Below, one piece after another: positions 33,844-35,836 of a stretch of 35,836 nt of DNA. Position 1 is the first letter of the stretch. Every line of letters begins with the position of its first letter. Source of the stretch: a virus (taxonomy: Duplodnaviria; Heunggongvirae; Uroviricota; Caudoviricetes); the IMG/VR virus record IMGVR_UViG_2645727821_000018. One strand, written 5' to 3'. The position numbers and the translations under genes are program-made. The notes below the pieces were generated by a model. That model was not told the origin of the DNA and did not search any database. It worked only from the letters and a program-made list of their open reading frames with translations.

Positions 33844-34299
33844 ATGCATCGTATAGACACGAAAACCGCGCAGAAGGATAAGTTCGGCGCGGGTAAGAAC
33901 GGTTTTACCCGTGGTAACCCCCAGACAGGCACGCCTGCCACCGATCTGGATGATGACTACTTTGACATGTTGCAGGAAGAACTCTGCAGCGTGGTGGAGG
34001 CATCCGGTGCCAGTCTGGAGAAGGCGCGGCACGACCAGCTGCTTACCGCGCTTCGTGCGCTGCTGTTAAGCCGCAAGAATCCGTTTAGCGATATCAAATC
34101 GGACGGCACGGTGAAAACGGCTCTCGAAAACCTTGGTTTGGGAGAAGTAATAAGGTGCTGGGCGTTATCCCTCTGGTATCAACAACAGCTTATGGTGGTG
34201 TATCCAGTAATATTACAGGTTCATACGCGACGGCGGTTTGTTCTTTTGCCGCTGTCAGGGGGAATAATACGATTGTGTTCAAAGTCGACAAACCACTGA
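33844..34299 (+). CDS. Tail-fibre constant N-terminal region; in this orientation it runs out of frame into the invertible segment
   Basis: N-terminus [22 protein letters not shown] is typical of side tail fibre proteins. After the crossover site at about 34145 the frame continues for about 50 codons of non-protein-like sequence to a stop at 34297-34299. Confidence 0.7.
34121..34146 (+). other. Hin/Gin/Pin-family invertase crossover site (left end of invertible segment)
   Basis: CTCTCGAAAACC-TT-GGTTTGGGAGAA is a 26-bp imperfect palindrome resembling hix/gix sites. The right half plus three bases (TTGGTTTGGGAGAAG, 34133-34147) is repeated in inverted orientation at 35812-35826. Confidence 0.7.
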
Positions 34300-34352
34300 A
34301 TGCAGCCTTTCCTTCAGATACCAGCGTCTCAGCGTTAATCATTGGACGGTAA
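34155..34352 (+). CDS. Tail-fibre variable C-terminal domain 1 (segment-internal; out of frame with the constant region in this orientation)
   Basis: Protein-like reading frame ending with TAA 2 nt before the assembly-gene ATG, but shifted by one nucleotide relative to the constant-region frame. Confidence 0.45.
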
Positions 34353-34354
34353 TA

Positions 34355-34798
34355 ATGAACTCAGTATTCTTTTCACCCGGAAGTAAAAGTTTTTATCTGC
34401 AAGAATTGTTTCCAGAATATGAGGATGCGGGAACGCTTCCTGATGATGTTATTGAAATTACCAGAGAAACATATGAGCAATTTCTTGGTCTGCATCCAGA
34501 AGGGAAAGAAATTGGCGCTGACAGTTCAGGACGGCCAGTATGGATTAATTCCCCACCCCCTTCAAAAGAGGATGAGGTGTTGACGGCTGAAATGAAAAAA
34601 ATATCTTTGGTTTCAGAAGTCAATACCTACATCAATACCCATCAGTGGCCTGGCAAAGCTGCTATTGGTCGTCTGAAAGGCGAGGAACTGGCGCAATATA
34701 ATTCGTGGCTGGATTATCTGGACGCACTGGAACTGGTCGATACTTCCTGTGCGCCAGATATTGAATGGCCTACGCCTCCGGCAGTTCAGGCCAGATGA
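34355..34798 (+). CDS. Tail fibre assembly protein
   Basis: 147 aa; C-terminal region resembles tail fibre assembly chaperones; coupled to the fibre C-terminal domain. Confidence 0.8.
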   Translation: MNSVFFSPGSKSFYLQELFPEYEDAGTLPDDVIEITRETYEQFLGLHPEGKEIGADSSGRPVWINSPPPSKEDEVLTAEMKKISLVSEVNTYINTHQWPGKAAIGRLKGEELAQYNSWLDYLDALELVDTSCAPDIEWPTPPAVQAR

Positions 34799-35372
34799 CA
34801 TCCGGCGCTGTGCTGGTATTTGTTGCCGTCACCGCGTCAATGTAATCCAGCACAGCGTTAAGCCGGGTTGTTTCTGCCTGCATCAGCTTCCGTCCGGCCT
34901 GTAATTTCAGCTGAATCAGACCGATGGAAGCCATTGCAGCATCAATCAGTGACTGACGCTGTGCTTCTGCCGCGTCTACTGCGGCGCTATGCTGTGCCTC
35001 AGTATCGGTCACCCATTTCTCACCATCCCATTTATCGTATGGCGTTAATGGGGCAATAGTGGTTGTATTTTCGGGGTAATCACCCGGTGCTGTGATTTGT
35101 TTTGATTCTCCCGTTTCGGTGTTATAGACGATTTCACCGCGATGGTCTGGCACATATTCCCATGAATTTAAATTCACAGAACGACAGATAGCATAACCCG
35201 CCTTATGTATACCTGGTGCATCCAGACAGGAATATGCCGGGATACCAACACCAACGGCAAGATATTCACTTGAAGTGGAAATATATTCCCGAGTTTCACC
35301 ATCATAGTTATAAACGGTAATATCCCCTGCCTTTGTAGCAACAAGTCCACTATTTAATATTGCTTTATCCAT
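34770..35372 (-). CDS. Tail fibre assembly protein (alternative, opposite orientation)
   Basis: 200 aa; C-terminal ...DYIDAVTATNTSTAPDVIWPELPEA parallels the C-terminus of the plus-strand assembly protein. Confidence 0.8.
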   Translation of the reverse strand: MDKAILNSGLVATKAGDITVYNYDGETREYISTSSEYLAVGVGIPAYSCLDAPGIHKAGYAICRSVNLNSWEYVPDHRGEIVYNTETGESKQITAPGDYPENTTTIAPLTPYDKWDGEKWVTDTEAQHSAAVDAAEAQRQSLIDAAMASIGLIQLKLQAGRKLMQAETTRLNAVLDYIDAVTATNTSTAPDVIWPELPEA

Positions 35373-35826
35373 TATGCTGCTCTCACGATATAGTTAAATG
35401 CAATGTTGCGTGGACGGGTATCGACGGGGTTAACGGCCACTGTACCCGACACGGACTGGTCATTACCGTTGCTAACGGTAATGTTACTACTGGTTGATCC
35501 AATCCCTACTGAATCGGTAAATTTAGCACCTGAGCCGCTCAAAGTTCCCGAGATGATAGCTAGCTCCACATAAAAAGTACCTACAGTTGGCTCTTGTGTT
35601 GACAGCACCGCACGCCTTGAATCAACGCCGCGCCCATCATCCCAGCCACGAATAAACTCACCACGTAAATCAGGCAATTTATTTGTCGGATAAGCCTTTG
35701 CCAGTTCCGGGTATTCTTCAGCAGAAAAAGCCGCACCGTTGCATTTCAGCCAGCCTGTTGGCGGTGTGGCTGAAGGCCATGGAACAGGCACACCAACAGG
35801 TAATGCAGAGCCTTCTCCCAAACCAA
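35372..35826 (-). CDS. Alternative tail-fibre variable C-terminal domain 2 (no start codon of its own; would be fused in-frame to the constant region after inversion)
   Basis: Minus-strand frame is open from the crossover site and reads ...FGLGEGSALPVGVPVPWPS...GWLKCNGAAFSAEEYPELAKAYP, typical of fibre C-terminal domains. The GGT TTG GGA GAA codons are in the same phase as at the left site. Confidence 0.75.
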
Positions 35827-35836
35827 AGCGGTACAA
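35811..35836 (-). other. Invertase crossover site (right end), truncated by the window edge
   Basis: Minus strand reads TTGTACCGCT-TT-GGTTTGGGAGAA-GG; it shares TTGGTTTGGGAGAAG with the left site; the outer half-site runs 2 bp past the window end. Confidence 0.6.

Follow-up and report, generated by a model that had tools for sequence, protein, structure and literature searches.

Why should a phage tail-fibre gene run out of frame exactly where an apparently invertible segment begins? This question is raised by the right end of a 35,836-nt stretch of DNA (the window), which stems from the draft genome of the ST95 E. coli strain SCB12. Judged from its sequence, the locus is the P segment, i.e., the Pin-type invertible tail-fibre switch, of an e14-related prophage of this strain. 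As such, the system is already known biology.

Anatomy of the invertible segment

The segment is bracketed by two copies of the 15-mer TTGGTTTGGGAGAAG, which are the only ones in the 35.8-kb window. With up to two mismatches to this sequence allowed, 0.11 chance matches are expected, and two or more matches were found in none of 100 shuffles. A repeat search returned the pair as 100% complementary arms, 1664 nt apart. The features of the region are:

33256..33840, plus strand: ymfQ / Mu gp48-type baseplate gene, directly 5' of the fibre gene (PF10076 Phage_Mu_Gp48, E=1.4e-26)
33844..34146, plus strand: constant N-terminal fibre part, 101 codons, outside the invertible segment, the same as in the fibres of IHE3034 and UTI89 (residues 1-101)
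34121..34146, no strand: left crossover site, full 26 bp, CTCTCGAAAACC-TT-GGTTTGGGAGAA, with the central TT at 34133-34134
34133..34147, plus strand: left copy of the 15-bp inverted repeat
34148..34352, plus strand: what remains of the variable fibre domain on the plus strand, its final 67 codons and stop, not in frame with the constant part
34355..34798, plus strand: tail-fibre assembly chaperone of the plus-strand domain, 147 aa (PF02413 Caudo_TAP, E=5.9e-28)
34770..35372, minus strand: tfaE-type chaperone of the minus-strand domain, 200 aa (PF02413, E=4.4e-30; tfaE in the annotation of relatives)
35372..35811, minus strand: alternative C-terminal fibre domain of the tail-collar type (PF07484 Collar, E=8.7e-16)
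35812..35826, minus strand: right copy of the 15-bp repeat, containing the inner half-site TTCTCCCAAACC and the central AA (35813-35826)
35827..35836, plus strand: opening 10 nt of what is left of a truncated pinE-like invertase gene, 18 nt spanning codons 36-41; the sequence, AGCGGTACAA, reads on as AGCGGTACAAAGTCCGAG in the source contig

The open reading frame map and the Pfam matches thus reveal a constant N-terminus outside the segment and, inside it, two opposed C-terminal domains, each with its own Tfa chaperone, and the initial annotation was right in placing two fibre C-termini and two opposed assembly genes between the repeats. The counterpart of the baseplate gene is annotated ymfQ in IHE3034, UTI89 and the e14 element of K-12. 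The remnant of the plus-strand domain includes a tail ORF of 65 aa (34155-34352), which corresponds to the IHE3034 fibre from residue 184 to the C-terminus (residue 247), and the intact domain has a weak match to Gp53-like_C at residues 134-218 (22.9 bits versus a cut-off of 24.9). In the public assembly collection, a protein identical to the 147-aa chaperone is listed in 9013 index blocks. As called, the ORF of the collar domain extends from 35372 to 35836 on the minus strand. An Rfam scan of the window gave no match.

The two crossover sites are not equally preserved. Both repeats had been assigned to 26-bp sites of the hix/gix type, and this holds for the left one, which is identical in the window, K-12 e14, IHE3034 and UTI89. 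The right site has lost its outer half, and the sequence that follows the repeat, AGCGGTACAA, is internal to pin and does not form a half-site. Two full inverted sites of the 12-2-12 type are present in IHE3034, UTI89 and e14, but not in the window; a search with the full-site pattern gave one match in the source contig, the left site, and two in the intact relatives, whose sites are mutually identical. A third crossover site was found by this pattern search neither in the window nor in the relatives. By analogy, a serine invertase would swap strands at the central TT/AA and thereby select the domain that is fused to the constant part of the fibre.

In the orientation present, the reading frame from 33844 comprises 101 in-frame codons followed by 50 out-of-frame codons, as had been estimated from the sequence, and the tail ORF lies in frame +2 relative to the constant ORF. 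The 151-aa frameshift ORF is not called in the annotation of the source contig. In-silico inversion of the segment generates a fibre of 247 aa, close to the predicted 250 aa and identical to UTI89 WP_000554665.1. In the window, only the inverted form is therefore in frame, and the current form is shifted after codon 101, while in IHE3034 and UTI89 either orientation is in frame and yields a 247-aa fibre with its own chaperone. This bears on the option, raised in the initial annotation, of one orientation being a "fibre-off" state. In this record a full-length fibre is indeed obtained from only one orientation. However, the relatives encode fibres both ways, the out-of-frame arm of the window is also devoid of 78 codons of its domain, and the arm shortened by 235 bp is present in none of 5426 complete genomes, so that we regard a designed off state as very improbable.

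Known systems, orientations and the fate of pin

The e14 P segment of K-12 (stfP-tfaP / tfaE-stfE, pinE) was reportedly characterized as a Pin-type inversion system by Plasterk and van de Putte in 1985. Alignment with e14 stfP/stfE, which had been proposed as a check, revealed the same gene order (ymfQ, fibre, tfa, tfaE on the minus strand, the second fibre gene on the minus strand, pin), the same repeat, TTGGTTTGGGAGAAG(G), and both 26-bp sites, as in the intact relatives. The constant region is shared as well: over residues 1-106, StfP is 95% identical to the fibre of IHE3034, which starts with the same 101 residues as that of the window. Likewise, tfaE and the collar arm have a DNA identity of about 89-95%. 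In contrast, the plus-strand variable domain and its chaperone belong to another cassette without any DNA match to stfP/tfaP. Further differences are that e14 is a remnant, whereas the host prophage is complete with head, tail and lysis genes, that e14 carries mcrA at the position at which the ST95 lineage has a GmrSD-like gene and a pin gene cut to 41 codons, and that the record alone lacks a further 235 + 171 bp.

More distant members of the Din family, i.e., the Mu G/Gin, P1 C/Cin and Salmonella H/Hin systems, share the inverted 12-2-12 sites within the fibre frame, and Mu and P1 share a constant N-terminus outside and alternative C-termini with chaperones inside the segment. Compared to Mu and P1, the fibre is much shorter (247 aa), a Mu-type baseplate is combined with lambdoid-type regulatory genes and an HK97-type head, and a functional invertase in cis is missing; Hin differs in controlling a promoter and not a fibre. 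In Escherichia phage SKA5, Mu gp46/47/YmfQ genes are likewise followed by a short fibre gene, two opposed chaperone genes and an opposed fibre arm, but this phage has an intact DNA invertase of 187 aa (56% identical to PinE), and its right site deviates from the strict e14 pattern. The same region of Shigella phage SfIV was matched by BLAST only. Shuffling of fibre C-termini by a serine invertase also takes place in the Min system of p15B and at a three-repeat P2-like locus of EPEC (PMC4272514); in contrast to these multi-site systems, only two sites are present here.

That the segment is invertible was borne out by complete genomes, in which both forms occur. IHE3034 has the orientation of the window and UTI89 the opposite one, and both prophages are identical to the window over the compared stretches. 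Among complete genomes with the prophage, 39 share the arrangement of the window over at least 80% of the query, and the opposite arrangement is found in UTI89 and in the places L008, L009, L011, L012 and L015. Other strains carry real lesions at the locus, such as an IS3 insertion or a split tfaE.

An invertase gene had been expected just past the window edge. Instead, the source contig continues there with the remainder of the last 18 nt (6 codons) of a pin stump, followed by the GmrSD-like gene, and no adjacent serine invertase gene was found in the source contig beyond this edge. The relatives contain a pin stump of 41 codons (123 bp), which is equal to PinE residues 1-41 and annotated as an incomplete recombinase, and the same truncation is present in all 60 relatives among the matches listed. 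As both orientations nevertheless occur, inversion would postdate the truncation. A lineage that retains only a stump of its own invertase would depend, for any inversion of its segment, on a Pin-family invertase that acts in trans from another locus. IHE3034 and UTI89 do contain a further pinE-like sequence elsewhere on the chromosome. Recent work is said to have found that Pin-type inversion acts in trans and blocks the adsorption of phage T2. The repeat of the e14 P segment has been reported to be inverted by PinQ, PinR and PinE, and the same source describes Din-family invertases as interchangeable in trans (PMC12529663).

Two gaps flush with the repeats

Comparison with the prophage of IHE3034 (L001), which was used as reference, revealed what is missing from the record. 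Over 34147 bp, the BLAST alignment of the two contains only 2 SNPs and 1 homopolymer indel, and two one-base homopolymer indels versus IHE3034 are present elsewhere in the SCB12 assembly. Two joints stand out:

34147..34148, no strand: joint J1, GGGAGAAG followed by TAATAAGG; 235 bp (L001 4449-4683) are missing directly after the left repeat
35826..35827, no strand: joint J2, CCAAACCAA followed by AGCGGTAC; 171 bp (L001 6363-6533) are missing directly after the right repeat

The gap at J1 amounts to 78 codons plus 1 nt, and the frame is shifted because 235 bp are missing after the left repeat (235 mod 3 = 1). The initial annotation had thus given the correct size of the shift, one nucleotide, but not its cause. 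It had also considered a single-base error and recommended a recount at 34145-34155. The frame offset of 1 nt and the homopolymer indels of the assembly would be in line with such an error. However, the alignment with IHE3034 shows a clean absence of 235 bp that are present in every complete relative, with 100% identity on either side and no single-base indel near the junction, which leaves a sequencing error of one base with next to no probability. The gap at J2 comprises the outer half-site CGTTTATGAAAA, the native start of the stfE-type ORF, the upstream region of pin and pin codons 1-35, all of which are kept in relatives. In the Hin, Gin and Cin systems the 5' coding part of the invertase gene harbours a Fis-bound recombination enhancer.

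The two gaps have several properties in common. At each joint the upstream sequence is intact up to the last base of the repeat, so that, counted from the first base of the repeat, 250 and 186 nt are lost. The former value (15 + 235) equals the read length, the latter does not. Both gaps lie on the same plus-strand side of the repeat copies, and consequently within the segment at the left site and outside of it at the right site. Microhomology amounts to 0 nt at one joint and 1 nt at the other. An inverted repeat of 7 nt, CTTTGTA / TACAAAG, is located 5 nt from each far breakpoint, and the far breakpoints share TA-nGnnn-TACAAAG at 10 of 14 positions. Both joints are seamless, i.e., the contig is continuous across them and contains no N.

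Neither joint was found in independent sequence data: J1 and J2 are absent from all 5426 complete E. coli genomes searched and from the IMG/VR viral contigs, and J1 is also absent from metagenome contigs. An ORF of 154 aa that is specific for J2 is on record in the SCB12 contig only. In the data searched, both joints are confined to one draft assembly among thousands that carry the prophage. At least one other draft assembly stops within 7 nt of the repeat.

Origin of the gaps and its meaning

The explanation that we consider most likely is that both gaps are mis-joins made during assembly. The SCB12 draft was generated from MiSeq 2x250 reads with A5, which combines IDBA, SSPACE and an automatic removal of "misassembled" regions. 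When contigs are joined, the IDBA code would trim overlap that has not been verified. If the SCB12 culture contained both orientations, de Bruijn contigs would break exactly at the ends of the repeats, and neighbouring contigs that truly share only the 15-bp repeat may then have been joined on assumed overlaps of 250 nt and 186 nt. In clonal cultures of K-12, the two orientations of e14 are about equally frequent, and clusters of abnormal read pairs are found at the locus (PMC4272514). The same-side position of the gaps fits a contig join that proceeds in one direction and would not result from the two-fold symmetric reaction of a recombinase, which favours an artefact. If so, the true SCB12 locus would be an intact switch of the IHE3034/UTI89 type.

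Not all observations are easily reconciled with an artefact. The joints are seamless, whereas scaffolds are broken at excised regions and not seamlessly rejoined according to the A5 paper. The second gap is not of read length, a pure artefact does not explain the 7-nt inverted repeat at the far breakpoints, and genuine decay of the locus is known from other strains. The excision by A5 of regions flanked by clusters of discordant pairs (PMC3441570) was considered as a variant, as it would account for a read-length-sized gap beside each repeat. It is less favoured, because a break or Ns would be expected and because mismatch-tolerant mapping would not yield exactly flush boundaries; a contig join with an over-estimated overlap is thus the preferred form of the artefact.

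Alternatively, both gaps could be real deletions in SCB12, an option that we regard as possible but clearly less likely than a mis-join. The switch would then be dead and locked in an orientation without a complete fibre; to a similarly limited degree of probability, one arm would be cut and frameshifted, the right site halved, and the pin stump, any enhancer therein and the stfE-type start lost. The unbroken contig without any N at the joints is in agreement with this, as is the position of J2 exactly at the top-strand cut of a serine invertase, after the central AA. The motif shared by the far breakpoints hints at a sequence-guided event, and the prophage lineage is already degenerate in having a truncated pin; real lesions at the locus are also seen in other strains. 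However, two independent events, each flush with the last base of a repeat, are very unlikely to coincide by chance, and for a recombinase the two positions differ, J1 falling 13 nt inside the left site and J2 on the centre of the right one. The flanks bear no resemblance to quasi-sites, microhomology for slippage is missing, and the match of one loss to the read length and the restriction to one draft assembly also argue against real deletions. Of the three options given by the initial annotation, a decayed arm is the one that best describes the record.

Several routes to real deletions were examined. Wild-type invertases strongly disfavour deletions, and in view of the Hin and Gin invertasomes a loop of 171 bp is sterically implausible. 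Deletion by an invertase via quasi-sites would require for J2 a very poor quasi-site with TA at its centre (about 3-4/10 consensus positions in each half), and at J1, 13 nt off the centre of the site, no register fits; this route was judged unlikely. Slippage or template switching was rejected because, with microhomologies of 0 and 1 nt, the 3' ends would not pair. If, in the UTI89 orientation, one deletion had fused the imperfect direct repeats TA-GGAAA-TACAAAG and TA-AGCGG-TACAAAG, the right repeat would have been lost as well, and the observed sequence results only if a contig was flipped in addition. The repeat-flush gaps might also be the scar of an aberrant reaction of a serine invertase acting in trans, in which the right site would have been cleaved at its centre and the ends then joined, leaving a protected half-site and the central dinucleotide. 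We consider this improbable. If true, it would be a natural case of an invertase that wrecked its own switch and locked an ST95 prophage in a fibre-less state.

With mis-joining as the probable origin of the gaps, the example indicates that short-read drafts can contain seamless gaps, flush with the repeats, at invertible loci, and pipelines would then read these as frameshifts or pseudogenes. The second point concerns the ST95 lineage, in which an intact two-cassette switch occurs in both orientations while its own invertase is a stump, a state that implies inversion in trans. Both points are of a kind already known, with little biological weight and modest practical value. The retention of the switch would fit the idea that the host keeps it for its own use, for example for StfE2-like anti-phage proteins.

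An e14-type tail-fibre segment

The repeats, open reading frames, frame relationships and in-silico inversion described in the initial annotation were all present in the window. The 15-mer TTGGTTTGGGAGAAG has exactly two copies, at 34133-34147 (+) and 35812-35826 (-), which a repeat search of the window returned as inverted arms with 100% complementarity and 1664 nt between them. When up to two mismatches are allowed, 0.11 matches are expected by chance in the window, and none of 100 shuffles gave two. An Rfam search of the window gave no match.

Features of the segment (coordinates, strand, description)
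34121-34146: left crossover site, complete 12-2-12, CTCTCGAAAACC-TT-GGTTTGGGAGAA, holds the left repeat copy
34155-34352, +: 65-aa ORF, between the repeat copies
34355-34798, +: Caudo_TAP chaperone, between the repeat copies
34770-35372, -: second Caudo_TAP chaperone, between the repeat copies
35372-35836, -: tail-collar-domain ORF
35812-35826, -: right repeat copy; the right crossover site is just TTCTCCCAAACC-AA, then AGCGGTACAA

The ORF from 33844 consists of 101 codons in frame followed by 50 out-of-frame codons, the frame of the 65-aa ORF being +2 relative to it. In-silico inversion of the segment yields a 247-aa protein.

The window is a complete prophage, which encodes an integrase, lambdoid-type regulatory genes, an HK97-type head, and a tail with Mu-type sheath, tube and baseplate (gp44-48/YmfQ), all according to the IHE3034 annotation. 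Its limits track gene calls and not the prophage ends, because both sit on ORF starts: a 108-aa ORF, which the IHE3034 annotation labels STAS-like, has its ATG at position 1, and a 154-aa collar ORF has its TTG start at position 35836. Beyond the window, a DinI pseudogene, a GIY-YIG gene and ssrA mark the actual end of the prophage.

The locus is the P segment of e14 in a complete relative of that prophage. Shared with e14 of K-12 are the gene order at the tail end (ymfQ, stfP, tfaP, tfaE(-), stfE(-), pinE), both crossover sites, which are identical to those in IHE3034 and UTI89, an invertase gene stump equal to PinE residues 1-41, and a constant fibre part that is 95% identical to StfP residues 1-106. 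However, the plus-strand cassette differs, pin is truncated, and the prophage is complete in the lineage of the window. An e14 P segment of 1797 bp with the same repeat has been reported, which is inverted by PinE, PinQ and PinR alike (PMC12529663). The type of system, its sites, trans-activation and orientation polymorphism are all already published.

Two gaps beside the repeats of the SCB12 record

An exact protein match of the 154-aa collar ORF identified the source record as NCBI GCA_000817355.1, contig JMQO01000016.1. E. coli SCB12 is an ST95 K1 isolate from neonatal bacteraemia; its genome is a de novo A5 assembly of MiSeq 2x250 reads (PMC4342429). Over 34147 bp the window differs from IHE3034 by two SNPs (A/G at 10320, C/T at 12449) and one homopolymer indel (one extra T within a T-run at 13712). 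It is without positions 4449-4683 (235 bp) and 6363-6533 (171 bp) of the IHE3034 locus, which would follow immediately on the left and the right repeat, respectively, along the plus strand; the stretch between the 235-bp gap and the right repeat is identical in both.

The variable domain loses 78 codons and one base to the 235-bp gap, and this loss causes the fibre frameshift; the one-base slip that had been considered earlier was not borne out. The 171-bp gap takes out the outer half-site CGTTTATGAAAA, the stfE-type ORF's native start, the sequence upstream of pin and its codons 1-35, and the last ten bases of the window are pin codons 36-39.

At an intact locus, the two 26-bp sites would be brought together by a Din-family serine invertase and cleaved at the central TT/AA, after which the strands would be rotated and religated and about 1.9 kb would be flipped. 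One orientation would join the constant 101 residues to a Gp53-like domain, with a 147-aa chaperone downstream, and the other would join them to the collar domain, followed by TfaE. This predicted mechanism follows from the anatomy of the locus and the established knowledge of Gin, Hin and Pin. In the Hin, Gin and Cin systems, the recombination enhancer lies in the 5' region of the invertase gene. The SCB12 locus as recorded could not flip efficiently, because half of its right site is missing, as is any enhancer carried by the 5' region of pin, and the plus-strand arm would stay incomplete in both orientations.

Both joints are absent from all 5426 complete E. coli genomes and from viral contigs, and the left joint is also absent from metagenome contigs. 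The SCB12 contig is the only record with the ORF specific to the right joint, whereas 9013 index blocks of a public assembly collection list the chaperone next to it. At both joints the upstream sequence is retained to the final base of the repeat copy, and the downstream loss, measured from the copy's first base, is 250 nt on the left, which equals the read length, and 186 nt on the right. Both gaps lie on the same plus-strand side of the repeat copies, the left one within the segment and the right one outside it. A recombinase acting on two-fold-symmetric sites would not produce such same-side gaps, but they would arise from a process moving along a single strand.

In clonal K-12 cultures the two e14 orientations are about equally frequent, and abnormal read pairs cluster at the locus (PMC4272514). 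Reads from both orientations would cause de Bruijn contigs to terminate precisely at the 15-bp repeat ends. Another draft assembly stops 7 nt from the repeat, and in 958 index blocks the longest chaperone-bearing contig is shorter than 2 kb, approximately the segment size. An assembler may trim an unverified overlap when joining contigs. Joining with an over-estimated overlap, the true one being 15 nt, would create both joints exactly, with retained repeat and seamless junction. By design, A5 cuts out regions flanked by discordant-pair clusters (PMC3441570), but from its description this step would be expected to produce a break rather than a seamless joint.

It seems rather likely that both gaps are an assembly artefact, and somewhat doubtful that they are real deletions in SCB12. 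Against an artefact, neither joint contains Ns, 186 nt is not the read length, and a 7-nt inverted repeat (CTTTGTA / TACAAAG) lies 5 nt from each far breakpoint, at 4672-4678 and 6539-6545 of the IHE3034 locus (window side 34148 and 35827). The 7-nt repeat and its surroundings taken together match at 10 of 14 positions (TA-nGnnn-TACAAAG), and in the UTI89 orientation these repeats become direct and bracket 421 bp with both gaps and the right repeat. This 7-nt repeat is accounted for by no model considered. The repeat-flush gaps are the only unusual feature of the locus; they are limited to one draft assembly and are probably not biological.

Orientation and invertase in relatives

In IHE3034 the segment has the orientation of the window and the 247-aa fibre ends in a Gp53-like domain, in UTI89 the segment is inverted and the 247-aa fibre, identical to that of the window inverted in silico, ends in a collar domain. 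Both arrangements recur in further assemblies. In both strains a second ORF of 163 aa (5908-6399 of the IHE3034 locus, 5972-6463 of the UTI89 locus) begins outside the right crossover site and takes whichever variable domain is not joined to the constant fibre part. Its architectural counterpart is StfE/StfE2 of K-12, where the chimera StfE2 is reported to block T2 adsorption (PMC12529663).

Other strains carry real lesions at this locus: IS3-family transposase genes and unrelated genes take the place of the collar arm and the pin stump of relatives in GCA_037080135.1 (4252-5465 of the extracted locus), and tfaE is broken into two ORFs in GCA_043359735.1 (3416-4017). The 'complete' genome of E. 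coli PA45B (NZ_CP021288.1, 2890626-2895893) has 88 one-base gaps versus IHE3034 in 5.3 kb, a differing sequence just inside the right repeat and four genes annotated as pseudogenes. These deviations probably reflect a noisy long-read consensus, possibly derived from a mixed-orientation culture.

The invertase gene that had been expected past the window edge is absent there, as the source contig runs through pin codons 40-41 and on to a GmrSD-like type IV restriction gene (DUF262; PF03235 + PF07510; 7990-9890 of the extracted SCB12 locus, 6653-8542 of the IHE3034 locus). The SCB12 copy has lost one base from an A7 run, and no gene is called there. In e14 of K-12 mcrA adjoins pinE, and the GmrSD-like gene occupies the equivalent position beside the pin stump; the position beside the invertase looks like a defence-gene slot.

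The related phage SKA5 has an intact invertase, 56% identical to PinE. A chimeric query of the DUF262 tag plus pinE found two or three places each in IHE3034, UTI89, NU14, SF-173 and APEC O18, compared to one per chromosome with the tag alone, and therefore these five chromosomes contain one or two further pinE-like sequences. The same search gave no further pinE-like sequence in the ST95 prophage carriers S88, UM146, PMV-1 and ZJ3920. The 123-bp pin stump, annotated as an incomplete recombinase, is common to all 60 relatives listed. Since strains sharing this truncation carry the segment in one or the other orientation, we infer that at least one inversion postdates the truncation and must have been catalysed in trans.
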